Both the position numbers and the translations under genes were made by a program. Below, piece after piece: positions 3,238 to 51,266 of a stretch of 64,000 bases of DNA (positions are counted from its first letter, which is position 1; every line of letters begins with the position of its first letter). Below the pieces are notes generated by a model. That model had not been told where the DNA came from, did no database searches, and saw nothing but the letters and a program-made list of their open reading frames with translations. The DNA comes from Candidatus Yanofskybacteria bacterium CG10_big_fil_rev_8_21_14_0_10_46_23 (GTDB taxonomy: Bacteria; Patescibacteriota; Minisyncoccia; 2-02-FULL-40-12; IGHO2-12-FULL-4), in NCBI GenBank assembly GCA_002771135.1, contig PCXO01000005.1:38061-102060 (forward strand), written 5' to 3'.

Positions 3238-4009
3238 TTCCTCACAAATTATCGCTCGATTTTTATTTTTTTTCAGTATCTTTTTAATTGGGGTTATCAC
3301 GGCCGGGGGGTTTCTCCGGGGGGCTCCTTTCTATTTCTTTTCTCGGCCGGTCGCGGGAGCCACCGAAATTAGCTTAGAGCTAAGATACTTTTGGCAATCC
3401 CTAACAAATTATAGAGAAATTTTTGAAGAAAATATTTTTCTGCGTCAAAAATATTCCGAACGACTCTCGCAGGAAGCCCGTGTGGCACAACTGGAGGCGG
3501 AGAATAAGCAACTTCGAGACCAATTGAAAATTGGGCCGGTTCCTCAAAACAAACTATTGCCGGTGCGGATTATTTTGAGTAAAGATGGTTTAGTCCAGTC
3601 CGGGGTTTTGATTGATTCTGGCACCTCGAGCGGTATTGAGGTGGGCGATGTTTTAATTTATGGCGGGAATGCCTTTATCGGGGTTGTCCAAGAGGTTTTT
3701 GACACAACGGCTCGAGTCACTCGACTTGGAGATCCCAGTTTGGAGATAAGTTTAGAGACAAATCGGGGCGTCCTTGCTTCAACTGAGGGAAAGATTGATA
3801 ACAATATTGAACTCAATCTGGTTTCGATTGACGAACAGGTCTCTATTGGAGATCTAGTCTTCACCAGTGGGCTTGACGGTTTGGCCCGAGGGGTTATTGT
3901 CGGGGTTGTCGTTCGTTCCGAATCTCCAAGTGGGGAATTATTCCAAAAAGTGGAGGTGGAACCGATTGTTAAAGTAATCGACTCCAATCAAGCTTTTGTC
4001 TTAAAATAA
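3230..4009 (+). CDS. mreC: rod shape-determining protein MreC
   Basis: Directly downstream of mreB, overlapping its stop; N-terminal TM, a coiled coil (QLEAENKQLRDQLK) and a beta-rich C-terminus. Confidence 0.65.
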   Translation: MFNSSQIIARFLFFFSIFLIGVITAGGFLRGAPFYFFSRPVAGATEISLELRYFWQSLTNYREIFEENIFLRQKYSERLSQEARVAQLEAENKQLRDQLKIGPVPQNKLLPVRIILSKDGLVQSGVLIDSGTSSGIEVGDVLIYGGNAFIGVVQEVFDTTARVTRLGDPSLEISLETNRGVLASTEGKIDNNIELNLVSIDEQVSIGDLVFTSGLDGLARGVIVGVVVRSESPSGELFQKVEVEPIVKVIDSNQAFVLK

Positions 4010-4010
4010 T

Positions 4011-4379
4011 TTGATGAAGTATTTATTCGGAATTATTTTTGGTTTATTTTATGATTTTGTTTTATCCGCTGGCTTTGGCTTACCTTCGGTAAACATTTTG
4101 CCGATTGTCTTGGTGTTACTTTTAATTAGCTCGGGGCGTCTTAATCGGCAGAGGTTATTCTTTGTTGGTTTGGGCGTTTTGGTCTATGATGCTTTCCAGC
4201 CCCACCACTTTGGTCTGGTTGCTTTCGCCTTTGCCTTATCCCTCGGCTTAGTTACGCTCATTAAAGAGCGGTTAATCCGTTTTGAGGCCCGCCCCCTATC
4301 GATCTTGTCTTTTGGCTTGATAATTGGCGCGATTCAATTTATGGCTCTTTCGGCTCTTGTCCGCATCTGGCCGGTTTAA
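4011..4379 (+). CDS. mreD: rod shape-determining protein MreD (polytopic membrane protein)
   Basis: 122-aa highly hydrophobic protein between mreC and the PBP2 gene; canonical gene order. Confidence 0.5.
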   Translation: MMKYLFGIIFGLFYDFVLSAGFGLPSVNILPIVLVLLLISSGRLNRQRLFFVGLGVLVYDAFQPHHFGLVAFAFALSLGLVTLIKERLIRFEARPLSILSFGLIIGAIQFMALSALVRIWPV

Positions 4380-18266: not shown

Positions 18267-18337
18267 TGCCGGGTCGTCTAAAGGTAAGACTACGGTTTTT
18301 GGGACCGTCTATCGGGGTTCGAATCCCTGCCCGGCAG
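18267..18337 (+). tRNA. tRNA-Gln (anticodon TTG)
   Basis: Manual fold: acceptor TGCCGGG/CCCGGCA, D-stem GTCT/AGAC, anticodon stem ACGGT/ACCGT with loop TTTTGGG, T-arm CGGGG-TTCGAAT-CCCTG; no encoded CCA. Confidence 0.75.
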
Positions 18338-18374
18338 CTATCCTTCGCCAAGGCTTCGGAATAGCCTTGCTAAT

Positions 18375-30163: not shown

Positions 30164-30192
30164 GACTCCCCGTTTCGGCGGGGAGTCAGTTT
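30164..30192. terminator. bidirectional intrinsic terminator between convergent genes
   Basis: GACTCCCCG-TTTC-GGCGGGGAGTC perfect hairpin flanked by A-run / T-run. Confidence 0.65.
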
Positions 30193-30608
30193 TGGAATCG
30201 ACGGGCGATCTTTTGGGCTAAGCCCTCTAGATCGTCCAATTCCGACTGGTGTACTACCAAGTCGGCCTTGGTCCCGTCTTTCTCGGGGTTGATGGTCAGG
30301 TCAATTGTGACCCTCTTTCCCCGAAAGACAAAGAACCCGTCGATTCCGTGCCACTGATCCAGTGGCGATCCTAGTGCGGTGTAGAACCGCAATTCCGACC
30401 AATCCTCGATTTCCAGCGCGATAGCGATCAGCGCGTGGAGATCGTTCATGGTCGGCGATTCGGGATCGCTCGGATCACCCGACTGGCCCTTTTCGACCAG
30501 TCGGAGGCTCTCACGGAATGGGGTATAATCCCCATTCCAAGAGAGCCGGCACGGGCCCAGCACCTCTTGTTCAAAGAGGTGCCCAGTGTAACTACTAGGT
30601 GTGGCCAT
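30186..30608 (-). CDS. hypothetical protein (141 aa), relatively GC-rich
   Basis: AAGGAGG RBS then ATG at 30608 (MATPSSYTGHLFEQEVLGP...); acidic; no recognisable motif. Confidence 0.45.
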   Translation of the reverse strand: MATPSSYTGHLFEQEVLGPCRLSWNGDYTPFRESLRLVEKGQSGDPSDPESPTMNDLHALIAIALEIEDWSELRFYTALGSPLDQWHGIDGFFVFRGKRVTIDLTINPEKDGTKADLVVHQSELDDLEGLAQKIARRFQN

Positions 30609-30758
30609 TTCCAACCTCCTTGAAAGGTACTGGCGAGCGGAGACCCATTCTCCGCTCTCAATATCTATATTATCCCATATATTATATAAGTATGTCAAAT
30701 AAAGTAAAAACCCCAACTTTTGGGGCATTTCTCTTTTTTTCCGTCTTTTTTAGGAGTT

Positions 30759-31552: not shown

Positions 31553-31984
31553 GTGAGATCAAAAATCACAAAATTTATTGCCTTAATCAGCGGACTAGGG
31601 ATTATCGATACAGCCTATCTTTCTTGGCAACATTTTAATTATAACCCGCTCCAGTGCAGTTTCTTCAGTGGCTGTGACATTGTTACCACCAGTCGATTCG
31701 CCGTGATCGGGGGCATCCCCTTGGCTCTGATAGGTCTTTTGTTTTATGCGATTGTTTTTATTTTAAATCTAATTTCCGAAAAACATCGATCGGCTCAAAA
31801 GATTTTATTGATTTTAGCTACGATCGGTTTTGGCGTCTCTGTTGTTTTACTCTATCTTCAAATTTTTGTGATTAAAGCTTTATGTATCTATTGTTTAACC
31901 TCATTTGCAACCTCAACGCTGATTTTTATCGCTCTCCTTTCTTCTCTTCGAAAAAACAAAAACCCCATCGCCTCGACTAGATAG
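31553..31984 (+). CDS. vitamin K epoxide reductase (VKOR) family membrane protein
   Basis: 4 TM; loop cysteines CSFFSGC and active-site CxxC (CIYC) in the last TM. Confidence 0.6.
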   Translation: MRSKITKFIALISGLGIIDTAYLSWQHFNYNPLQCSFFSGCDIVTTSRFAVIGGIPLALIGLLFYAIVFILNLISEKHRSAQKILLILATIGFGVSVVLLYLQIFVIKALCIYCLTSFATSTLIFIALLSSLRKNKNPIASTR

Positions 31985-33008
31985 TCAATTGAATGGGGTA
32001 GAATTTTCTAAGGAAGCTCTTGACGCGTTCACCAAGAACTTCAAAGACCACATGATCCGGGTGGATTTTTTTCACGCGGATGGCCAACCCGGCGATCCGC
32101 TCTTCCGCCCCTGGGAGGGCCGTGGCCGCTAAAGCCAGAATCGGGTCCGCTTTAGGATCACAGTCGAAAATTCGACAAAAGTCCGACCACTTTTGGGAAT
32201 CCTCTTCCACGAATTTTCGGATCATATAAGCCAAGAGGTGTCGAGCAATATCGACCCTCCCGTTTTCCAGCCGAAGGTAGCTATAGCGAGCCACGCTTTC
32301 GGCTAGCTTTCTTAAATTAATGTACCGGAGGGGATCGGAAAATTTGCTCCCTCGATTCATTCCATAAACCTTGTCGGAGAATAGGAAGAATTTATGGAGC
32401 TGATAGTTCAAGATAGGGTTTTTAAGTTCCCCCCTTAAAATATCCGCCAGAAGAAGCGGGTCTTCCTTTAGGACTGAAAATCGCTTTCCGGAATAAATCG
32501 GGTAGCGTTTCGGCCAGCTTTCGATTACACGCCCCTTGCTTCGAGCGGTTACTTGGAATCTGGATTGCTCAATATCCAAACCGGGCCGGGCCCAGTTTTC
32601 GGCTTGGATATCGGCTTCGTACTGAAGCATCGCCAGAATATGCGGGCGAACAAGGCGGTACTGGTCCGGGGTAAGCCAAGATACTTTTTTCCTTGACGGG
32701 ACCCAGACCTTCCCCTCTGGCCCCTGCATATTGTTTGGGTGGTTGGCCCGTGTGGCCCCAATCCCAATTTCGCAGAGGTCAACAACTTTAGGAATAGCCA
32801 CCCCGTACCTTTTAGAGACCTTGATAAAATCAGGGGCGAGTTTTTGGGGTCTCCCGATGATGGTCATCAGGGCCAGGCGAGGCCCAGAGGAGTCTGCGAT
32901 CTTTATCTCAACCCCGTCGGGATCAGTGATCGTGATTAGATATCGACTTAAGTGGGAGACGAGCTCCAAGTCGCGTCTAACCTTTTGAAGCGTTTTTTGG
33001 GTTATCAT
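31977..33008 (-). CDS. hypothetical protein (343 aa), second gene downstream of the reverse transcriptase; candidate effector
   Basis: No recognisable motif; start is 12 nt after the stop of the 437-aa gene, so likely translationally coupled. Confidence 0.45.
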   Translation of the reverse strand: MITQKTLQKVRRDLELVSHLSRYLITITDPDGVEIKIADSSGPRLALMTIIGRPQKLAPDFIKVSKRYGVAIPKVVDLCEIGIGATRANHPNNMQGPEGKVWVPSRKKVSWLTPDQYRLVRPHILAMLQYEADIQAENWARPGLDIEQSRFQVTARSKGRVIESWPKRYPIYSGKRFSVLKEDPLLLADILRGELKNPILNYQLHKFFLFSDKVYGMNRGSKFSDPLRYINLRKLAESVARYSYLRLENGRVDIARHLLAYMIRKFVEEDSQKWSDFCRIFDCDPKADPILALAATALPGAEERIAGLAIRVKKIHPDHVVFEVLGERVKSFLRKFYPIQLTI

Positions 33009-33020
33009 TTCTGGCCCTCC

Positions 33021-34334
33021 TTAGAACATCCCAAACTGTTGTTTAGTTTCCAAAGCCTTTCCTTGGCTTTGGCCGAGAGCTCTAAGCTCGTCAGGCGCCA
33101 AGGCAAGAATTTGCCGATGTCGCTCTAACTTTTCTAGGGTCGCTTTTCCCGTTCGACGGCCCGGAAACGGAGAAATTCCTCGAAATGTTTGTTGACCAAA
33201 AGATGGCTTTCTTTTTATCGGAACGATAAACCCCAGCCGGTAATACGGGAAGGCGGGGACAACACTCCGACAAAGGTCAGCTTGAAAGACACAATCCGCG
33301 CAAGGTTCCCAATAGTTTTTTGGGATTAAACCCGGCTGGGCCAAAGCCTCCTCGGTGAAAAACATCCTCTGGCCATTGGGCCCGTTCCTACTTTGAGATT
33401 GAATATGAGCCGAGCAATCTGTTCGACTCTTAAACCAAATTGAGTAGGAAAGGCTGTAAATCGGCAGATCTAGCTTAGTGATCATCCCCATCGTCCAAAG
33501 CGCGATGGAATTGGTGATCTGCTCCGTGACCCGAAAAGCGGGTCTTCCTCGCAGAGCCTTGAATATAGCCCCGTTATCGACCCGATTTTTTTCTGAACCA
33601 ATCTGACCCGGCTGAAATTTTTGCCAGACCTTTTTGTTGATTTTAATTAACCCCAGCCCCAGAAAGAGCCGGATCATGTGAAAATCAACTGGCAACGGAC
33701 AGGGCATTTTCGGAATCAACTCCTGTTCCATATACCAAATCGCGAGCAAGGAGAAGATTTTTAGGCGCATGCCCCCAAACCGATCATGGCGATCAACAGT
33801 ATTATTGAACGCGGAGACAACGTTGTCTTGGCCCTGAAATATTTTCCGGGGGTCGCCCTCCCAATACTCCGACAAGCATCGGGCGTTGTTCCGCCAATTT
33901 TGAGTATGCTCTCGGATATTCATCGCCAGAGAGCCGTGGTTTGACTCGCCTTGAGTCGCTCCGCCAAGAGCGATAAGGCTGGCTTCTTCCAACTTCTGAC
34001 CGATCTCCGGCGAGCTCATCCGGATAATTTCTTCCGGCTCGAACATCTCCGGATAAATTTTACAAAGTATCCCCAGGGAGAAAAAGGGGTCATCACTGTT
34101 TATCCCGCCTCGCATAAAGAGCGCCACGAAAAAATAAAACAGCACCATTTTCCGAGGATCTCCTCTTAGCTCCGTTAGCGAATTGAGATAGAAAATTTCG
34201 GGAGGGACGGTAAGGCCGTAGCGACCTTCCCCCTCGCGATACTGTTTCTCCAAAACCCCAAAAACATAACTCGCCCGTTGGCGATTAAAGAACACCAACC
34301 CCGCGCGAGCTTGCGCCTTCATTTTATTGCCCAT
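33021..34334 (-). CDS. hypothetical protein (437 aa), first gene downstream of the reverse transcriptase; candidate effector
   Basis: No recognisable motif (MGNKMKAQARAGLVFFNRQRASYVF...). Confidence 0.45.
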   Translation of the reverse strand: MGNKMKAQARAGLVFFNRQRASYVFGVLEKQYREGEGRYGLTVPPEIFYLNSLTELRGDPRKMVLFYFFVALFMRGGINSDDPFFSLGILCKIYPEMFEPEEIIRMSSPEIGQKLEEASLIALGGATQGESNHGSLAMNIREHTQNWRNNARCLSEYWEGDPRKIFQGQDNVVSAFNNTVDRHDRFGGMRLKIFSLLAIWYMEQELIPKMPCPLPVDFHMIRLFLGLGLIKINKKVWQKFQPGQIGSEKNRVDNGAIFKALRGRPAFRVTEQITNSIALWTMGMITKLDLPIYSLSYSIWFKSRTDCSAHIQSQSRNGPNGQRMFFTEEALAQPGLIPKNYWEPCADCVFQADLCRSVVPAFPYYRLGFIVPIKRKPSFGQQTFRGISPFPGRRTGKATLEKLERHRQILALAPDELRALGQSQGKALETKQQFGMF

Positions 34335-34436
34335 GTGGTTATTATCCCTTCTGATTTTTTTAATGAACGGAAAAGTACACTGAGCTTAGCCTAACAGAAT
34401 AGACCCACTAGGCAAACAAAAAACCGCTTCTTGATT

Positions 34437-35423
34437 TTAGCGGTTATTTTCTGGATCATCTTGCAACTTTCGAAAAGAACGGAGAAGTTTTTCCTCGTGT
34501 TGGTTGGGGACCTGCCGCGCGACCTTAAGGGTGTGTAAGACGAGTCCAACCATTCCCCGAGCTCGAGCGATCTCGTGGGGATCTCGCGTTTCCAGAGCTC
34601 GATGGACCAGCCCCGCGATTTTACGGGTGTAATTTCGGGGGATGAACATCCGGCCCCCGTATTCAAGGCCGATCCCGGTTATTACAATCGGCCCCTTTTT
34701 TAAATCTTTGAACTGACACTTGCCGTGGTTAATCGGCAATCGCCACTGTTTCAAGGTTTCTCTAATTTCGCGACGCTTCTTTCGAGAAGGCCGAGATCGA
34801 AAAGAGAATACGAGATCATCAAGATAATGGGTGTAATGACCCGCGGAAATCATTTTAGAAATCCGCCAATTAACAAGGGTGCCAATATAGGCGTTGAAAA
34901 GATCGGGGGAGGCGGGGAGACCGACGGGCAACCCGGGAATCTCCGGCAAAAGAAAATACCTCTCCAGAAATATCGTCACCCCGGCTTCATCTTCTTCCGA
35001 AAAAGCTTCGAAGTGGGGGATTGCCCGAAGAAATTCGATCACAATCTTGATCATCAGACTGTGGTCAACTTGACTGTAGGCATCTTTCAGATCCACAACA
35101 TAGAAAAACCGGTTCCCCCGATGTTCAGATACCAGTCTCTGATGGGAAAACCCGGGGCGGGCGCCTCGGGCGTAATGTAAAGCCGAACTCGCTTTCTTGG
35201 AGACCCGCAAAAGATAAATGAGCCCTTTGTGGAGAAACCGGAGGGCCTCATTCGGAACGGTTAGCATTCTGACCTTCTTTTGGCCACTGAGGGGGTTTAT
35301 ATCTCGGATCGCCCATCTTTCCCATTTGGGAGGCTCTGAAAATGTCGGTCGGAGGCTAAGCTCTCCCGGCTTCGTGTAAGCCGATCGCTCTAATTCCGCC
35401 AGAAAATCGCTTATTTTATACAC
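34437..35423 (-). CDS. reverse transcriptase (compact, retron/DGR/defence-RT type; no maturase or endonuclease domain)
   Basis: AAGGAGAG RBS then GTG start; RT motifs YVVDLKDAYSQVDH, GLPVGLPASPDLFNAYIG, YTHYLDDLVF (YxDD); ITG triplet (PIVITGIGL) in the thumb, reminiscent of the retron VTG motif; 328 aa. Confidence 0.8.
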   Translation of the reverse strand: MYKISDFLAELERSAYTKPGELSLRPTFSEPPKWERWAIRDINPLSGQKKVRMLTVPNEALRFLHKGLIYLLRVSKKASSALHYARGARPGFSHQRLVSEHRGNRFFYVVDLKDAYSQVDHSLMIKIVIEFLRAIPHFEAFSEEDEAGVTIFLERYFLLPEIPGLPVGLPASPDLFNAYIGTLVNWRISKMISAGHYTHYLDDLVFSFRSRPSRKKRREIRETLKQWRLPINHGKCQFKDLKKGPIVITGIGLEYGGRMFIPRNYTRKIAGLVHRALETRDPHEIARARGMVGLVLHTLKVARQVPNQHEEKLLRSFRKLQDDPENNR

Positions 35424-35459
35424 TGCGATCTCTCCTTCTTTATTGTTTTTTTAAAAATC

Positions 35460-35650
35460 AGCAGGGGGAGTCTCGAACCCGAAACCGATTTTTGCTGAGG
35501 TTGCTAGGAAGCTCGGTGCGAAAAAACACCTTACTCTCCTTTTTGGATTCTAGCCGAACCCTACGCGCTATGTGAATAGCGCGCACCCGCTCTGAGCGGA
35601 TCGGCCCTCACTTAGATGGTTAAGGTTCTTCCGCGACTCCCCCCTGTCCT
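35460..35650 (-). ncRNA. structured non-coding region immediately upstream of the RT, bounded by inverted repeats; candidate retron msr/msd-like ncRNA
   Basis: CAGGGGGAGTC (35462-35472) is the reverse complement of GACTCCCCCCTG (35635-35646), one nt apart; internal hairpins (CGCGCTAT-TCAC-ATAGCGCG; CCGCTC-TG-AGCGG); GC-rich; no ORF. Confidence 0.45.
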
Positions 35651-35714
35651 TCCTAGACCGCTGAGGTGCTAGGAGGCTGATTTTATATTCGCACAATGGG
35701 GTAAATTTACAATA

Positions 35715-36086
35715 TTAGTTTGGATCGACACATTGAGCGCTGTCTTTAAACGGGGGGATTGTTTTTATGATATTACTCAGGGTACTGGTTAGGTCGGCCC
35801 GCTCATTTGATTGGATCAGCTCGTCGATGTGACCCTTGGAAGAATCAATGACATTTTTTAAAGTATCCGCTTGTTCTTCTAGGCTGAGATTGGCAAATTT
35901 CCCCTCATGGATAAGATTTTCAAAATCATTAATTTCGTTTTTAAAATCGGAAAGAATCGTCTTCTCTTTGGCGGCCGGATTTATGATGGTAATAGTTTTT
36001 TCTTTAGCCGCTTGGATAAAGTCGGGTTTTACAAAACCGATTACCAAACCAAGGGCGGCGAGACCAACTAAAAAGCGAATAATCAT
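35715..36086 (-). CDS. small secreted/membrane-anchored protein with an AAKEKTI tandem repeat (hypothetical)
   Basis: N-terminal signal/TM; AAKEKTITIINPAAKEKTIL repeat. Confidence 0.4.
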   Translation of the reverse strand: MIIRFLVGLAALGLVIGFVKPDFIQAAKEKTITIINPAAKEKTILSDFKNEINDFENLIHEGKFANLSLEEQADTLKNVIDSSKGHIDELIQSNERADLTSTLSNIIKTIPPFKDSAQCVDPN

Positions 36087-38800: not shown

Positions 38801-38857
38801 GATCAAGCCCCCCATCTTTTCTAAAAGCAAAAAAGCTGGTATTCAAGAAGTAAATTT

Positions 38858-39799
38858 ATGAAGAAAAAAGAAAAAATTGACTTGCCGGAGAGTATTGCCA
38901 ATATAAATAATGATCAACCTATTTACTTTGAAAAAAATAGCTCCTCCCTAAAAGTTTTTGAAGTTGTAAATAATATTCTCGGACCATATGGCTACGAAGA
39001 AGTTTCCGCTGGTCAATTCAAACGTATTGCCGGTAGTTCGGCAAATTCATCTAACAAGATAGAAAATTTTGCGATCGGGAGGGGCTCAATTGCTCATGGA
39101 TTCACCCACCTACCAAATATTATTGAGTATTGCCAATCAATTATTGATAATTCTATTTTGGTTCCCTTAGAAGAAGTTATCAAGGAATTCAATTGGGCAA
39201 AAAAAGCAATCAATGAAAATTTTATAACACTCCATTCGAATGGAAAAATGAGATATGACATAGAGGCAATTATGGATATAACAAAAGGAATGTTAAACGA
39301 AGTCGCGTTTAAAATGGACTGCGAATCCTATGGGATCGATATAGAGCTAAATAGAGATTTTTATAAAGGAACTTCCAATACTGATGAGGGGCAGGATGTA
39401 AAAAGAGTAAGGTTTAACAAAAATAAGTTTGCTGAACCTAAAGTTAAAGTCCAAATAAAAGATGTCCAGTACTTTTTGTTGATTCCGAAAAATGAGTTTG
39501 GAGGAGATAGGCAGGCCGGTCTTTTTGTTGGGTATAGGGTTCATTGGAAAAAAGCGAATACAGGGCAAAGATTTTTTAGAAGTTTAGGCGGTCGTGGCGA
39601 AGAAATATTTTCAGATTTTCCTGTTTTGGGCGGTATCAGGGTAGAAAGAAGAGGTTGGGCGCTAAGAAGCGATTTTCAAAGCTTACCAGCTGGCACAGCA
39701 TCAAAAGGCATGAAATTTAATAACGACAATATGTTTGTTTATTGGGATAATTTAAGAAATATGGAAGAATTATTCCCAAAACTTTCAGATCTAATCTAA
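38858..39799 (+). CDS. hypothetical protein; candidate Type II restriction endonuclease partner of the convergent methyltransferase
   Basis: Very AT-rich; 3' end overlaps the 3' end of the C5-MTase gene by 9 nt in convergent orientation (classic R-M layout); no recognisable motif. Confidence 0.3.
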   Translation: MKKKEKIDLPESIANINNDQPIYFEKNSSSLKVFEVVNNILGPYGYEEVSAGQFKRIAGSSANSSNKIENFAIGRGSIAHGFTHLPNIIEYCQSIIDNSILVPLEEVIKEFNWAKKAINENFITLHSNGKMRYDIEAIMDITKGMLNEVAFKMDCESYGIDIELNRDFYKGTSNTDEGQDVKRVRFNKNKFAEPKVKVQIKDVQYFLLIPKNEFGGDRQAGLFVGYRVHWKKANTGQRFFRSLGGRGEEIFSDFPVLGGIRVERRGWALRSDFQSLPAGTASKGMKFNNDNMFVYWDNLRNMEELFPKLSDLI

Positions 39800-41350
39800 G
39801 CGCATTGCTTTTATTATTTGTCTTGCGACAGCCTTAACTACCGGGACTGTAACGGAATTGCCGATTTGTTTGTAGAGTGCCGAATCTGCAATTGCGGGTA
39901 ATTTATAATTGCTAGGGAAACCTTGAACACGTGCACACTCAAGTGGCGTTAGTTTTCTAATACCTTTTTCGTCTTTAATAATTGGCACATTGTGTCCGCC
40001 AGTCCCCATGTTGGCCGTAAGGGTGGGACAGACGCCTTTTTTATTTTCTCGAACATACTGTCGGCGCCATTGATAAACTCGCCCCTTGTCTTTTACAAAT
40101 TCTGCTAATTTCGGGAAAAGGGGCTTGTTGTTGTAGTAATATTTACTCCCAACATTTTTCTCAAGAATATCAGACATCGAAGTGGTGAGTGGCACGGGAT
40201 CGGGAAACTCAAAACAATCAGCATGTTTTTTGTTTTTAAATCCGACAATATATATCCTCTCTCTATTTTGGGGCACGTTGCCATACTCCATGCTATTGAG
40301 TACTTTTGCTTTTACATAGTAGCCGAGATTCACAAGTGTTTCCTTAATAATTTTAAAAGTCCTGCCATCGTCGTGACTTTTTAGATTCTTTACATTTTCT
40401 AGTAGAAATCCCCTCGGCTTTCTTGCCTCAATAATTCTGGCAATGTCAAAGAATAGGTTGCCACGATCTTTTTTGTCCCCAAAGCCTTCTCGGTAGCCAG
40501 CGATAGAAAAAGCCTGACAGGGGAAGCCACCCAGAAGAAAATCGAATTCTGGCAAATCATCAATGCCAATTTTTCGCACATCTTCCACAATAAGTTTTGA
40601 AGTTGGAAAATTGAGATCGTAAGTATATTTGCATTTAGGTTCAAAGTCATTTGCAAATACCGTATCAAACCCGGCGCTCTCAAAGCCGAGTCGGAGTCCG
40701 CCAATACCAGCAAACAAGTCTATTGTTTTGAATCCATTTTTTTCAATAACCGGGATTGTTTTAGGTTGTTTGTGGATTATTTTAATCAGTATCCCTCGAA
40801 TTTCTACTTCGCTCCGATAAATAGGTAAGTGGCTTTGGTTTGACGGTTGCAATCTAACGCGATCTTTTTCACGATATATTTTTTTTAGTGTAGCCTCATT
40901 GTTATCGATGATCGCTACCACAGTCTGTCCATTTTCTGCGACGGCTTGTTTTTTGATTACCACCGTGTCGCCATCGAAGATACCCTCGTCAACCATACTA
41001 TCTCCTGCAACTCGCAAAGCGTAATAGTAGGAATCTTTGTTGAGAAGACTGTTACTAACCGCCACGGTCGCATCAAAATTTTCAATTGCTTCGATAGGCT
41101 GGCCGGCAGCAATTATACCAACAATTGGAATTTCTGTTGTTTGCCGAATATTTAATCCTCTCGTAGAGTAATCATCCCTTGCGAGTAGTTTTTTTTCAAT
41201 TAAACCACCGATATGTTCATGGACAGTTGCCGGAGATTTAAGCCCAAACTTCTTTTGAATTTCATTGATTGTAGGGGATATGCCATTTTCTCGGATATAC
41301 CCTTCGATAAATGTATAAAGTTCTTGTTGTCGTTTTGTGAGAGTAGCCAT
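39791..41350 (-). CDS. LexA (S24 autoprotease repressor) - DNA cytosine-5 methyltransferase fusion protein
   Basis: N-terminus is a full LexA: wHTH (MATLTKRQQELYTFIEGYIRENGISPTINEIQKKF), Ala-Gly cleavage site (IIAAGQP), Ser (AGDSM) and Lys (ATLKK). C-terminus is a C5-MTase: motif I DLFAGIGGLRLGF, motif IV GGFPCQAFSIAG, motif VI ENV, motif X QIGNSV. Continuous ORF with no internal start. Confidence 0.8.
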   Translation of the reverse strand: MATLTKRQQELYTFIEGYIRENGISPTINEIQKKFGLKSPATVHEHIGGLIEKKLLARDDYSTRGLNIRQTTEIPIVGIIAAGQPIEAIENFDATVAVSNSLLNKDSYYYALRVAGDSMVDEGIFDGDTVVIKKQAVAENGQTVVAIIDNNEATLKKIYREKDRVRLQPSNQSHLPIYRSEVEIRGILIKIIHKQPKTIPVIEKNGFKTIDLFAGIGGLRLGFESAGFDTVFANDFEPKCKYTYDLNFPTSKLIVEDVRKIGIDDLPEFDFLLGGFPCQAFSIAGYREGFGDKKDRGNLFFDIARIIEARKPRGFLLENVKNLKSHDDGRTFKIIKETLVNLGYYVKAKVLNSMEYGNVPQNRERIYIVGFKNKKHADCFEFPDPVPLTTSMSDILEKNVGSKYYYNNKPLFPKLAEFVKDKGRVYQWRRQYVRENKKGVCPTLTANMGTGGHNVPIIKDEKGIRKLTPLECARVQGFPSNYKLPAIADSALYKQIGNSVTVPVVKAVARQIIKAMRLD

Positions 41351-41671
41351 ATATAAATATTTTATCCCGAAAACTACCCGAAAACTACAGCGAGTTGTCC
41401 ACACTCTATTCGACATCTTGTCTTTATTTAGTTAAAAAACAGGAGTAGTGTGGGCATAGAATACCTCGACATTCGATCTTAAAACTAGTAATAAAACTAA
41501 CGAGAGCGCTAGAGATTTTGCGGATTTGAGTACCGCTGATCAAAAGAAATTTCTGATTGAGTATTTGGATAAAAATCAGCTTTATGCAAATTTAAGCAAG
41601 ATTGAGGGTAGGGGATATCTGGTGAGCAAAGAGGGTATTAAATTAAACAAAGAATTCTATGAAGATTAATT

Positions 41672-42556
41672 ATGTGGGATAAAGTCGCAACTTTTTTAAG
41701 TTTTTCTGGTATTGAGGATAAAACGGTATGGCAAGATGTTATCCTTAGTTCTTTTTTGATACCACTAGTAATTTTTTTAGGGGTAAAACTTTCGAAATGG
41801 TGTAATAGTATTAGACCGTCAAGGTTAATTTTTAAAGATTATTTATCTAAAAATTCTTTTATTTATATATTTCATTCTCAGATGTCTGGCGCAGATGACG
41901 ATTGGAACTTTAATAAAAACCAAAAGTATATTGCGAGATATCCCGACCCAACTCCTACAGATTATGCTCATCTTGGGATCCAGAAAAAGCTAAATATTGA
42001 TCCGGTATCATCAGGGGCTGATAGTGAATGTGTTGCGGACATTTTTAATATTTTGGGGTTAATTCAAAAAACAAAAAATATTATTATTGGAGATCTGATA
42101 AATGATTGGAGCATTTGGTCAAAACCAATATTTTCAGTAGGTTTTAATCCAAAAACTAATAAACTTATCGAAAAATGCGACCCGATTTTTTTTGAATTAA
42201 GCGGAACTTCCTTAAAAGTAAAGAATACGAATATTAGTTATGGGTCTAATTTACCAGATGACGCCGGAGTAATACAAAAAACGATTGATAAAGATTCGGG
42301 GAACCCAGTTTTTATATTAGCGGGTATAGGTACTCTCGGAACAAGCGAGGCTGGCTTTATCTTGAAGAACAATTTTATTAAACTTGGGAAGCTTTTTGGG
42401 AATGATCCATTTTGCGTATTTTTAACAGTAAAAACTAATGAAGGCAAAAATTCAGCTTTAATAAGAAAAATTGTTCCCAGTCCCAAATGGTATCGAATTT
42501 TTATGTTTCCAATATTATATTTCAACTTTAAAAATAAAGATTTTTTTAAATACTGA
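41672..42556 (+). CDS. hypothetical protein with an N-terminal TM (AT-rich, island-associated)
   Basis: 294-aa ORF; no motif recognised. Confidence 0.4.
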   Translation: MWDKVATFLSFSGIEDKTVWQDVILSSFLIPLVIFLGVKLSKWCNSIRPSRLIFKDYLSKNSFIYIFHSQMSGADDDWNFNKNQKYIARYPDPTPTDYAHLGIQKKLNIDPVSSGADSECVADIFNILGLIQKTKNIIIGDLINDWSIWSKPIFSVGFNPKTNKLIEKCDPIFFELSGTSLKVKNTNISYGSNLPDDAGVIQKTIDKDSGNPVFILAGIGTLGTSEAGFILKNNFIKLGKLFGNDPFCVFLTVKTNEGKNSALIRKIVPSPKWYRIFMFPILYFNFKNKDFFKY

Positions 42557-49781: not shown

Positions 49782-49857
49782 TTGGAGCCGATGGTCGGAT
49801 TCGAACCGACGACCTCTACTTTACGAAAGTATTGCTCTACCAACTGAGCTACATCGG
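49782..49857 (-). tRNA. tRNA-Thr (anticodon CGT), CCA encoded
   Basis: Reverse complement folds: acceptor GCCGATG/CATCGGC, D-arm GCTC-AGTTGGTA-GAGC, anticodon loop TTCGTAA, T-arm GTCGG-TTCGAAT-CCGAC. Confidence 0.8.
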
Positions 49858-50094
49858 CACCATCTCGCTTTGATTAAGATCAAAGCTTCCTCCTTCGCCG
49901 GAGGCTTCGGAGGACAAGTCGGAAATAAGATAACCTTGCTTGTCATGCGAAGCCTCGGGCGAAGTCTGACCCGCCGAAGCTTGGGGATTAGTTCAATCGG
50001 AGGTGGGAGCTACCTCGGCCCTTTTTCGATCTTACCACATAAAATCTGATTTTCTTTTTAAACAATGGCTATTATGAGTATTTTTTCCCATAGG

Positions 50095-50340
50095 TTAAAT
50101 TGTCCGTAAGATTTGTTTGAGCTTTCTTCGCCCACCTCCATTTTTCCAGTATAGTTCTCTTTTTCTTGCCTCTATTGATGTATTAAACTCTTCAGAAAAC
50201 AATAGATCTAATGGGCGCCTGAATTTAGTAGATTTTACTTGTCCCGAATTATGTTTCTTTAACCTCTCCTCCAGATTATTTGTATAGCCGACATAAGTTT
50301 TGTTATCCTTATTGCTTTTTAGGATATAAATATAAAACAC
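50095..50340 (-). CDS. GIY-YIG nuclease family protein (small stand-alone)
   Basis: MFYIYILKSNKDNKTYVGYTNNLEERLKKHNSGQ...; lies between tRNA-Gly and tRNA-Thr. Confidence 0.75.
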   Translation of the reverse strand: MFYIYILKSNKDNKTYVGYTNNLEERLKKHNSGQVKSTKFRRPLDLLFSEEFNTSIEARKRELYWKNGGGRRKLKQILRTI

Positions 50341-50548
50341 TAATCTGTTGAGAGCGGGTCGCCCGTTTGGGGCGGACCTCGCTCAAAATTTGGAACAAAT
50401 TTTGAGCGGGTGAAGGGAATCGGTCACGAATAATCTTTCACTTCCGTTCAAGATTTTCTCGACCCCAGCTCGCTTGTTCCACCCTTTGACGGAACATCGC
50501 TCCGCTTTTCGATTCCTTTAACAACCAATAAATTGGTTGTTAACCCGG

Positions 50549-50619
50549 AGCGGGTGAAGGGAATCGAACCCTCATCACTAGCTTGGAAGGCTAGAGCTCT
50601 GCCATTAAGCTACACCCGC
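50549..50619 (-). tRNA. tRNA-Gly (anticodon TCC)
   Basis: Reverse complement: acceptor GCGGGTG/CACCCGC, anticodon stem CTAGC/GCTAG with loop CTTCCAA, T-arm with TTCGATT loop; no encoded CCA. Confidence 0.8.
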
Positions 50620-50808
50620 CTGCGCCCCATAAAAATCTCGAGGCTTCGGCGAGGCAGGCCCGTTAATTTTGGGCCCGCCAAATAATATCTTGAAATTATG
50701 CTATGAAAACTTTTATTTATCAACAGTGGGGCGAGCAGAACTACCGATTTCTGACAACTTGCACCCGCGCCTGGTGGCGCGAGTACTGCGCTCCCCTTCG
50801 GTCGCTTG

Positions 50809-50881
50809 TATCCCGGGCAGGACTCGAACCTGCAACCGACAGCTTAGAAGGCTGTTGCTCTTCCGATTGAGCTACCGGGAC
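50809..50881 (-). tRNA. tRNA-Arg (anticodon TCT)
   Basis: Reverse complement: acceptor GTCCCGG/CCGGGAT, D-arm GCTC-AATCGGAA-GAGC, anticodon stem ACAGC/GCTGT with loop CTTCTAA, T-arm GCAGG-TTCGAGT-CCTGC. Confidence 0.8.
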
Positions 50882-51098
50882 ATATATTTTTTGAATAACA
50901 TGACTCCCATTTAAAGTATATAAATTGTTAATAATCAAAACGCTTGCCCCCCGAATCCGCCGACTGGCGGAGAAGGGGGAAGCTACCGGGACATGTTCGG
51001 ATATTATACCACGAAAGACATTGCCGGTAAATGGAAAGCGTGGTAAAATAATTTAGATTTAGTTATACTAAATTCCGCTTAAATTTAAATAGTTCCCT

Positions 51099-51172
51099 CG
51101 GGCTGTAGCGTAGCGGTTTAGCGCGCCTGCTTTGGGAGCAGGAGGTCGTCGGTTCGAATCCGACCAGCCCGA
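51099..51172 (+). tRNA. tRNA-Pro (anticodon TGG)
   Basis: Acceptor CGGGCTG/CAGCCCG, D-arm GCGT-AGCGGTTTA-GCGC, anticodon stem CCTGC/GCAGG with loop TTTGGGA, T-arm GTCGG-TTCGAAT-CCGAC. Confidence 0.8.
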
Positions 51173-51190
51173 CAGGTCGAAAATCAAAAT

Positions 51191-51266
51191 GGTGGTCGTA
51201 GCTCAATGGTAGAGCACCGCTCTGTGGCAGCGGTGGTTGTGGGTTCGAATCCCATCGATCACCCCA
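51191..51266 (+). tRNA. tRNA-His (anticodon GTG) with encoded G-1 and 3' CCA
   Basis: G-1 pairs with discriminator C73; acceptor GTGGTCG/CGATCAC; anticodon stem CCGCT/AGCGG with loop CTGTGGC; T-arm GTGGG-TTCGAAT-CCCAT. Confidence 0.85.

Follow-up and report, generated by a model that had tools for sequence, protein, structure and literature searches.

The 343-aa protein encoded at positions 31977..33008 (minus strand) of the 64-kb stretch of Candidatus Yanofskybacteria DNA analysed here (the window) belongs to an uncharacterised family of about 310–360 aa. Its gene and that of a 437-aa protein (33021..34334, minus strand) form a conserved pair, found tightly linked across many uncultured bacteria and in three gene orders. 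We give about even credence to the 343-aa protein being a non-catalytic accessory partner of a divergent HhH-GPD glycosylase in a two-gene DNA-maintenance (base-excision) module. An earlier note made from the sequence alone implied the role of a retron effector, which the protein probably does not have.

According to the open-reading-frame listing, the 343-aa gene starts with an ATG at position 33008. A GGAGG ribosome-binding site can be read from the sequence 7 nt ahead of this codon (33016..33020, minus strand), directly past the TAA stop codon of the 437-aa gene (33023–33021). The 12-nt gap between stop and start (33009–33020; GGAGGGCCAGAA), together with the ribosome-binding site, fits the translational coupling within an operon that the earlier note had proposed. 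At its 3′ end, the 343-aa gene converges on, and overlaps by 8 nt with, a VKOR gene (31553..31984, plus strand; Pfam PF07884, E = 1.5e-24), so that the arrangement first described is confirmed in its coordinates; the VKOR gene is unrelated to the 343/437 module.

A word-indexed homology search returned the 343-aa and 437-aa proteins themselves only, and exhaustive HMMER searches were needed to recover family members. With the 343-aa protein as query, this retrieved 55 cluster representatives of similar length; the profile of the resulting family matched the window protein with E = 1e-70, and alignment-based AlphaFold2 modelling yielded a confident structure (pLDDT 88.2, pTM 0.87). The ORF is therefore a true gene, not a chance reading frame. 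Most of the family-conserved residues are retained in the window copy (D13, G52, E80, R87, R106, K108, Q116, Y117, W139, G174, R176, D183, D189, R304, and E323), whereas positions 87–89 read RAN where the family has a conserved RPY.

The 343-aa protein showed no significant sequence or fold similarity to any described protein family. The impression at first reading that it carries no assignable motif was borne out by scans against Pfam, NCBIfam, PADLOC, and PDB sequences, none of which gave a match, and against PHROGs, where the best hit was insignificant (E = 0.058). Comparison of its model with PDB folds gave a weak winged-helix signal as the only hint of similarity. The earlier note had named homology to a known metabolic enzyme as an outcome that would speak against its own reading; none was found for this protein, whereas its 437-aa partner does have a known fold, that of an HhH-GPD glycosylase (see below).

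[quoted passage not shown] In SSB itself, the DDDIPF tip serves as an interaction hub (PMC5872125). Among 1374 ORFs from the family loci, each 90 aa or longer, the motif occurred in 21, of which 17 were 343-family members. The other four, ~157 aa long, end in ...KDIPF, and the two that were scanned proved to be SSBs (Pfam SSB, E = 2e-40 and 1.7e-38). The 343-aa protein itself does not combine an OB-fold SSB domain with an acidic-IPF tip and is not an SSB.

For the 437-aa partner, structure comparison of the predicted model revealed an HhH-GPD fold, glycosylase-like but divergent, with QNG1, a nucleotide-salvage enzyme rather than a DNA enzyme, as the top match. The model is weak overall (pLDDT 55.8), being confident for residues ~50–210 but not for the Cys region. 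Single-sequence scans (Pfam, NCBIfam, PHROGs, PADLOC, PDB sequences) gave nothing significant; in particular, the 437-aa protein and five relatives matched no Pfam family at E ≤ 1, HhH-GPD and DUF2419 included, and the 437-aa protein matched no PDB sequence. A scan of a genome-contig collection likewise yielded no relatives of this protein.

Conservation was more informative. Across 57 sequences of the 437 family, G188, K192, and D217 were invariant, as was the motif GMRxK(192)IFSL, while a second motif, PxPVD(217)FH..R, featured H219 and R222 in 98% of members each. C307 was also invariant and three additional cysteines (C345, C348, and C355) were present in 95–98%; these last three are spaced CX2CX5C in relatives and CX2CX6C in the window copy, which is further distinguished by a unique helical C-terminal extension of ~40 aa. 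Four cysteines including CX2CX5C, combined with a GxxRK...D pattern, typify DNA-binding enzymes of the EndoIII/MutY type. When the family was compared by hhalign with an E. coli Nth sequence, PVDFH aligned with AVDTH (probability ~2%) and the Cys region aligned locally to the Nth cluster loop (2.3%), both alignments being short, local, and non-significant. Taken together, the residue patterns and the predicted fold suggest that the 437-aa protein is probably a very divergent EndoIII/MutY-like glycosylase with a putative iron–sulfur cluster. At three loci, the 437-like gene contains nonsense mutations.

Pairing of the two families was assessed by profile searches of 84 loci, hhalign comparison of distant clusters, and a non-redundant tally. 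The tally comprised 56 non-redundant metagenomic loci found via the 437-aa family, 46 of which were decidable; in 36 of these, a 343-like gene adjoined the 437-like gene, either in tandem (15 loci), convergently (14), or upstream (7). For instance, the convergent neighbours of 343-homologs at two loci (L004 and L007) are 437-homologs with 30% identity (E = 3e-47 and 7e-54), and two distant 343-like clusters could be joined to the family by hhalign (probability 98.6–98.7%). At 8 loci, an unrelated ~410-aa protein (cluster c5) is found as the partner instead; we considered it as a hidden 343 relative and rejected this (hhalign probability <1%). Three 343-homolog loci had no 437 gene within several kb. 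Stop-to-stop ORF gaps at other tandem loci mostly range from 70 to 250 nt, and coupling as tight as the 12 nt seen here is rarer there.

At other loci, the pair is surrounded by core genes, e.g. those for ThrRS, MiaA, GatB, TGT, TruB, RNase HI, RecJ, DnaG, RpoD, MnmA, RNase HII, the CCA-adding enzyme, and SSB. Its position between DnaG–RpoD and an M48 peptidase is stable across genomes whose DnaG proteins are 60–80% identical. The pair evolves fast: 343-family proteins share 38–58% identity where RpoD retains 71–88%, and 437-family identities do not track those of neighbouring genes (r about 0.25). PADLOC returned no significant match for the window proteins, 52 members of the 343 family, or six of the 437 family, the lowest E-value among the 52 being 0.0054 (one member, to PDC-M01B). 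Likewise, phage records queried with one member of each family, and viral contigs queried with the 437-family alignment, yielded no match.

In the preferred reading, the 437-aa enzyme would flip out and excise a damaged or modified base, with Lys192 and Asp217 as catalytic residues and the Cys4 cluster contacting DNA, and the 343-aa protein would bind DNA, the glycosylase, or both. The SSB-like tail of its relatives may tie the enzyme to SSB-docking genome-maintenance proteins. In the window, both proteins would be co-translated from one mRNA, next to a retron-like reverse transcriptase (RT) and RNA that would represent a separate, lineage-specific neighbour. Against this reading stand QNG1 as the top structural match, the weak model of the 437-aa protein and its lack of any significant HhH-GPD match at the sequence level, and the lack of both tail and RPY in the window's 343-aa copy. 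The fast evolution of the pair, the 437-family identities out of step with neighbouring genes, the loci with a different partner, the nonsense mutations, and the three 343-homolog loci with no 437 gene nearby also count against it.

The RT gene lies upstream of the pair (34437..35423, minus strand; 328 aa; Pfam RVT_1, E = 8.6e-17) and encodes YLDD and VITG motifs. Its product aligned nearly full-length to NCBIfam retron_St85_RT (E = 3.4e-17; 62.6 bits against a cut-off of 235) as well as to PADLOC RT_II-A and RT_I-A, all with scores under the curated thresholds; among annotated proteins, it is closest to an E. coli RT of the retron St85 family (25.7% identity). Matches to DRT and UG models were marginal, partial, and weaker than those to retron models (UG26, E = 2.7e-6; UG17, 9.8e-6; Drt3a, 1.1e-3; Drt2, 1.8e-3), arguing against assignment to the DRT class. 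Neither the genome-contig nor the viral collections contained relatives of the RT. Preceding the gene is a structured 291-nt leader (35424..35714, minus strand), a candidate retron msr/msd RNA that is predicted to fold at –105.6 kcal/mol (z –4.7) and carries 9-nt terminal inverted repeats at ~35676–35684 (AAAAUCAGC) and 35453–35462 (GCUGAUUUUU); an Rfam scan assigned it to no family. A diversity-generating retroelement was considered and rejected, as no TR/VR repeat of the leader occurs within the window. The RT stop codon is spanned by a terminator-like hairpin (34414..34445, minus strand; AACCGCU, 10 nt, AGCGGUU, then UUUUUGUUU), pointing to possible termination of RT transcripts ahead of the 437-aa gene, 102 nt further on. 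The GC content of the RT, 437-aa, and 343-aa genes falls inside the normal range of the window (z about +1), and a horizontally acquired island, as judged by base composition, was accordingly rejected.

This neighbourhood had led the earlier note to see in the two proteins of no assigned function behind an RT the effector module of a retron or DRT system. In such a system, msDNA made from the structured RNA by the RT would restrain the 437-aa and 343-aa proteins until phage infection frees both, whereupon DNA damage by the glycosylase-like enzyme would cause abortive infection; a retron would have captured the otherwise free-standing pair in this Yanofskybacteria lineage, with the glycosylase and its partner as effector. 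The local architecture is compatible with this, as structured RNA, RT, 437-aa gene, and 343-aa gene follow one another on one strand in the order of a retron operon, the best full-length matches of the RT are retron models and its nearest annotated relative belongs to the St85 family, the 12-nt coupling is tighter than in most tandem loci, and there is no obvious alternative effector next to the RT except an upstream ORF of 123 aa with membrane or coiled-coil character. Type I-A retrons use an otherwise free-standing Septu pair, PtuAB, and St85/Sen2-type retrons an N-glycosidase-like toxin; given the former precedent, co-option of the pair is conceivable for a single genome. Comparative evidence points the other way. 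Not one of the 84 other loci with the 343 and/or 437 family encodes an RT (a phmmer search with the window RT found itself only, even at E < 10), which makes the pair independent of the RT, and at one locus (L023) the two genes occur in tandem, and even overlap, without it. Moreover, the window copies keep the invariant residues of their RT-free relatives and are no divergence outliers, no PADLOC model for retron or other defence effectors matches either family, other copies lie in core-gene contexts, the three genes do not stand out from the window in GC content, and the hairpin and 102-nt gap intervene after the RT. The effector interpretation is thus not supported by comparison across loci, and we regard capture by a retron, even in this lineage, as improbable.

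The pair might instead act in conflict without any RT, its glycosylase attacking foreign DNA, e.g. DNA with modified bases, and the 343-aa protein serving as specificity, regulatory, or immunity partner; such a cassette would act like a restriction–modification or toxin–immunity pair and be linked in any orientation. Indeed, linkage over ~3–100 nt persists through tandem, convergent, and upstream arrangements, and orientation-independent linkage of this sort is common for restriction–modification-type pairs. The fast divergence, the 437-family identities discordant with those of flanking core genes, the replacement of the partner by the ~410-aa protein, and the occasional nonsense mutations are likewise compatible with a cassette for conflict or defence, as are the retron-like RT adjoining the pair here and a ParE/YafQ toxin near another copy (L005). 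In addition, a recent preprint reports HhH-superfamily glycosylases that act against phage on their own (bioRxiv 10.1101/2025.10.29.685425). However, the flanks consist of core genes for replication, translation, and tRNA functions rather than of defence islands, locus position is stable among genomes with 60–80% DnaG identity, PADLOC gave no match, the phage and viral queries used returned no copies, and the SSB-like tail points to integration into host genome maintenance, leaving a conflict cassette an unlikely explanation. We attach still less weight to the 437-aa protein being a QNG1-like N-glycosidase with free nucleotides or nucleosides as substrates and the 343-aa protein as auxiliary subunit. 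Such an activity would be useful to auxotrophic CPR bacteria, and QNG1 is the top structural match; the translation-gene neighbourhood is weak evidence for salvage, because genes of this kind are abundant in small genomes. In contrast, the four conserved cysteines (CX2CX5C) and the GxxRK...D pattern fit DNA-binding enzymes, DUF2419 is not matched, and both the winged-helix signal of the 343-aa protein and the SSB-like tail point to DNA.

If the base-excision reading is true, many uncultured CPR-type bacteria carry a base-excision enzyme too divergent for sequence models. It would operate alongside a dedicated partner of no known fold, whereas classical glycosylases manage without one. Carried by a protein that is not an SSB, the SSB-like tail would then be a new route by which a repair enzyme is connected to the bacterial network of genome maintenance. 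Were the retron capture true instead, this would be the first retron with an Fe–S HhH-GPD DNA glycosylase as toxin, regulated via a partner of no known fold. For annotation, the locus advises caution: an RT followed by two genes of no assigned function is insufficient for calling a retron effector without comparative evidence.

Among known systems, type I-A (RT, PtuA, PtuB) and St85/Sen2-type II-A retrons resemble the locus in gene order, with structured RNA and a small RT followed by two co-directional genes. The window RT is nearest to the retron St85 and RT_II-A models, yet far below the cut-off, and the 343 and 437 families match no known retron effector and are not RT-linked elsewhere. 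The queuosine-5′-monophosphate glycosidase QNG1 (DUF2419) shares no sequence family with the 437-aa protein; to our knowledge, it has no Cys4 cluster, and we know of no partner protein for it. With Brig1 and the HhH-superfamily 'Dag' antiviral glycosylases, the 437-aa protein has in common a divergent glycosylase fold outside the canonical repair families; such glycosylases are presented as single proteins in the preprint text, which mentions neither an operon nor a two-gene system (bioRxiv 10.1101/2025.10.29.685425), whereas the present family has a core-gene context, a conserved partner, and no defence-database match. Compared with the Fe–S HhH-GPD glycosylases EndoIII and MutY, to which it has no significant match through Pfam HhH-GPD or PDB sequences, the 437-aa protein is about twice the length of EndoIII, has its first Cys 37 residues before the second rather than 6, and is encoded beside an obligate-looking neighbour that the classical glycosylases lack. 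Finally, the C-terminal tip of SSB has its like on the tail-bearing members of the 343 family, and the SSBs encoded at the same loci end in ...EVKDIPF.

Inspection of the window bore out a minus-strand ORF at 31977–33008 that initiates with an ATG at 33008, encodes 343 aa and follows a co-oriented 437-aa gene (33021–34334, minus strand; TAA stop codon at 33023–33021). The 12 nt between this stop codon and the ATG (GGAGGGCCAGAA) open with a GGAGG Shine-Dalgarno sequence, 7 nt from the start codon. At its other end, the 343-aa gene converges, as the earlier note had it, on a VKOR gene (31553–31984, plus strand; PF07884, E 1.5e-24), with the two 3′ ends sharing 8 nt. A gene for a 328-aa reverse transcriptase (RT; 34437–35423, minus strand; RVT_1, E 8.6e-17) lies 102 nt upstream of the 437-aa gene. 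GC content of the RT, 437-aa and 343-aa genes is ordinary (z ~ +1). Elsewhere in the window, three consecutive low-GC genes (38825–42553; 0.31–0.40, z down to –3.4 relative to the window's genes) may represent horizontally acquired DNA, and the highest GC3 (z +2.1) belongs to a 180-aa ORF (30186–30728, minus strand) that matched no Pfam, NCBIfam or PADLOC family and, among PHROGs, produced an insignificant hit (E 0.28). Five of the window's tRNA genes (Thr, Gly, Arg, Pro, His) cluster at 49783–51266; the sixth, tRNA-Gln, is located at 18267–18338.

Scans against Pfam, NCBIfam, PHROGs, PADLOC and PDB sequences returned no significant match for the 343-aa protein, in keeping with its initial description as devoid of assignable motifs, and a word-indexed search of 5.8 billion proteins retrieved the protein itself alone. 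Exhaustive HMMER comparison with 1.84 billion representatives revealed 55 relatives at E ≤ 1e-3, nearly all of 310–360 aa and aligning end to end at 24–39% identity, and the ORF is thus a real gene of an undescribed family. Conserved positions comprise D13, VIAVIGP, LLxEIGIGxxRPY, RRKWFxLTxEQY, W139, GxRFSV, DxxLxxDIxWAE and VFEVF; the window copy carries RAN instead of RPY at 87–89 and retains the remaining conserved residues. No family member matched any Pfam or PADLOC family, and the family profile found nothing in the PDB. The AlphaFold2 model built from the family alignment is confident (pLDDT 88.2, pTM 0.87); as modeled, the protein has no recognizable overall fold among solved structures and probably contains a small winged-helix element.

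About a third of the distinct family members (29 of 81) have a C-terminal acidic run that leads into a final [IVLMF]PF, e.g. EEEDIPF, DDKIPF, LEDIPF, EEDDFPF, NDDMPF, DEEEIPF or LSDDIPF (the tail-bearing family includes protein relatives P0003–P0056 and loci L001–L080, e.g. L002:5977–7023, L014:1447–2667 and L078:1064–2152). Of the 1374 ORFs ≥ 90 aa across the window and comparison loci, just 21 have such an ending, and 17 of these belong to the 343-aa family. The other four (~157 aa, ending in ...EVKDIPF; L055 and L058–L060) include two that were scanned and that the Pfam SSB model identified as true SSBs (E 2e-40 and 1.7e-38). Many enzymes of genome maintenance, DnaG included, dock on the conserved SSB tip DDDIPF (PMC5872125). 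Because of this SSB-like tail in its relatives, we link the family to DNA maintenance; the window copy itself ends in ...FYPIQLTI and is devoid of the motif.

The 437-aa partner likewise had no Pfam or PDB sequence match. Alignment of 57 distinct family sequences revealed R75, G76, W147, N150, G188, K192, L196, D217, W280, W300, R304 and C307 as invariant and C345, C348, C355, H219 and R222 as 95–98% conserved, in the order GMRRK(192)IFSLL ... PxPVD(217)FHxxR ... C307 ... PC345xxC348PIExxC355. When the family was compared by hhalign with an E. coli Nth sequence, probability reached only ~2%, with two segments at this low level falling, in Nth order, on the AVDTH catalytic motif and the C-x2-C-x5-C cluster loop. 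An AlphaFold2 model from six sequences was weak (pLDDT 55.8), its confident core spanning residues ~50–210. With moderate confidence, we consider the protein a very divergent, possibly bifunctional EndoIII/MutY-like glycosylase with a Cys4 metal cluster. The window copy additionally carries a helical C-terminal extension of ~40 aa (residues ~396–437, 33021–33146; pLDDT 77–88), found in none of the aligned relatives.

Six homologs of the 343-aa protein could be placed on contigs, none of them near an RT. In two loci (L004, L007), the convergent neighbor was a 391–394-aa protein lacking a Pfam match that proved homologous to the 437-aa protein (30% identity, E 3e-47 and 7e-54). A search with the 437-family alignment added four members, each with a convergent, Pfam-negative neighbor of ~325–345 aa that, where DNA was available, was assigned to the 343 family by profile search. 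Scanning metagenomes with a 437-family seed, and thus unbiased as to the 343 family, yielded 73 loci that collapsed at 90% identity into 56 groups (46 decidable, 10 too short). The window's tandem order, 437 then 343, was found in 15 groups and a convergent arrangement (spacing 3–100 nt) in 14, while in seven a distant 343-like gene sits directly upstream on the same strand (98.6–98.7% hhalign probability against the family). Adjacency in 36 of the 46 decidable loci, in three orientations, supports a conserved functional pair whose products, judging from this proximity, may interact physically; together with the 12-nt, GGAGG-containing gap, it also upholds the operon proposed for the window genes. 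Two groups had a partnerless 437-like gene. The remaining eight (non-redundant loci) carry an unrelated convergent gene for a ~410-aa protein with a weak ParB-HTH match (Pfam, E 2e-4) and no relationship to the 343 family by hhalign (minus strand, L040:6215–7462, L043:6122–7474, L048:6327–7565, L049:6192–7358, L052:6221–7441 and L053:6295–7560), which may have taken the place of the 343-like partner without being homologous to it.

Recurring neighbors of the pair are DnaG and RpoD (eight loci), MnmA (six) and the CCA-adding enzyme (five), besides M48 and M50 peptidases, ThrRS, MiaA, GatB, TGT, TruB and SSB. RNase HII adjoins the pair in five loci, directly 3′ of the 343-like gene in four tandem ones (L015:7323–8033, L019:7282–8046, L021:7322–8008, L044:2890–3738) and, in L023, upstream of the 437-like gene. 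The 437-like gene of L007 has its start within an RNase HI gene (3674–4108), beside which RecJ is encoded. In one syntenic group (L025, L031, L036, L038, L039, L046, L047), the pair's slot between DnaG-RpoD and an M48 peptidase is kept at DnaG identities of 60–80%. Viral contigs and phage records contained no copies of the pair's families with the queries used. With about even confidence, we propose a two-protein base-excision or DNA-maintenance module, in which the 437-aa protein would, judging from its fold, be the catalytic Fe-S HhH-GPD enzyme, and the 343-aa protein would act as an accessory subunit binding DNA and/or, as adjacency suggests, its partner, and bearing an SSB-like docking tail in many relatives.

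A rather unlikely alternative is that the pair forms an RT-independent conflict cassette. Linkage that outlasts changes in orientation, partner exchange in eight loci and the recent report of antiviral HhH glycosylases (bioRxiv 10.1101/2025.10.29.685425) would fit this idea, as would the pair's evolution. The 343 family diverges rapidly (38–58% identity vs. 71–88% for RpoD), yet its members in the syntenic DnaG-RpoD/M48 group correlate with their neighbors (r 0.7–0.87). Identities of 437-like proteins do not track neighboring genes (r about 0.25; e.g. L038 vs. L047, DnaG 79% and 437 45%; L038 vs. L046, DnaG 60% and 437 83%), a pattern suggesting that alleles are exchanged while the locus stays in place. 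Also counted in favor of a conflict cassette, a single in-frame stop breaks the 437-like gene in each of three loci, at a conserved Trp (L031:5661–5663 TGA, L066:461–463 TAG) or Tyr (L052:5961–5963 TAG); possible explanations are pseudogenization, strain variation or faulty assembly.

The earlier note had seen in both proteins the effectors of a retron or DRT. The best full-length matches of the RT are indeed retron models (NCBIfam retron_St85, PADLOC RT_II-A and RT_I-A), the first at E 3.4e-17 and 62.6 bits, below its cut-off of 235; among annotated proteins, it comes closest to an E. coli RT labeled 'retron St85 family' (25.7% identity), and no relatives turned up in the genome and viral collections. 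Its 291-nt leader (35424–35714, minus strand) matches no Rfam family and has pronounced secondary structure (–105.6 kcal/mol, z –4.7), with 9-nt inverted repeats closing it off. As no TR/VR repeat exists within the window, the locus is not a DGR, the class to which a review assigns ~80% of RTs in CPR genomes (PMC8632793); the stretch at 34437–35714 (minus strand) pairs a retron-like RT with a structured leader in a CPR genome. Abutting this leader with its stop codon is a 123-aa ORF (35715–36086, minus strand) of no assigned family, with an N-terminal hydrophobic helix and an otherwise coiled-coil-like sequence, which is a possible effector of the retron itself. Straddling the RT stop codon, before the 102-nt gap to the 437-aa gene, is a hairpin (AACCGCU...AGCGGUU) with UUUUUGUUU after it, apparently a terminator of the RT's own. 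The effector claim found no support, because the pair is widespread without an RT (none in 84 comparison loci by phmmer with the window RT, even at E < 10), resides among core genes and matches no defense model, and because of this apparent terminator; the 343-aa protein is a weak candidate retron effector. Type I-A retrons employ the Septu proteins PtuAB, and by analogy a retron might have co-opted the pair in this lineage only, which we regard as improbable. A QNG1-like role of the pair in nucleotide salvage seems similarly doubtful.

As to known systems, the 343-aa family is undescribed and without a known fold, and its 437-aa partner is probably a new branch of a known superfamily, invisible at the sequence level. 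Relative to base-excision enzymes, the pairing of the two proteins and the SSB-like tail are the new variations.
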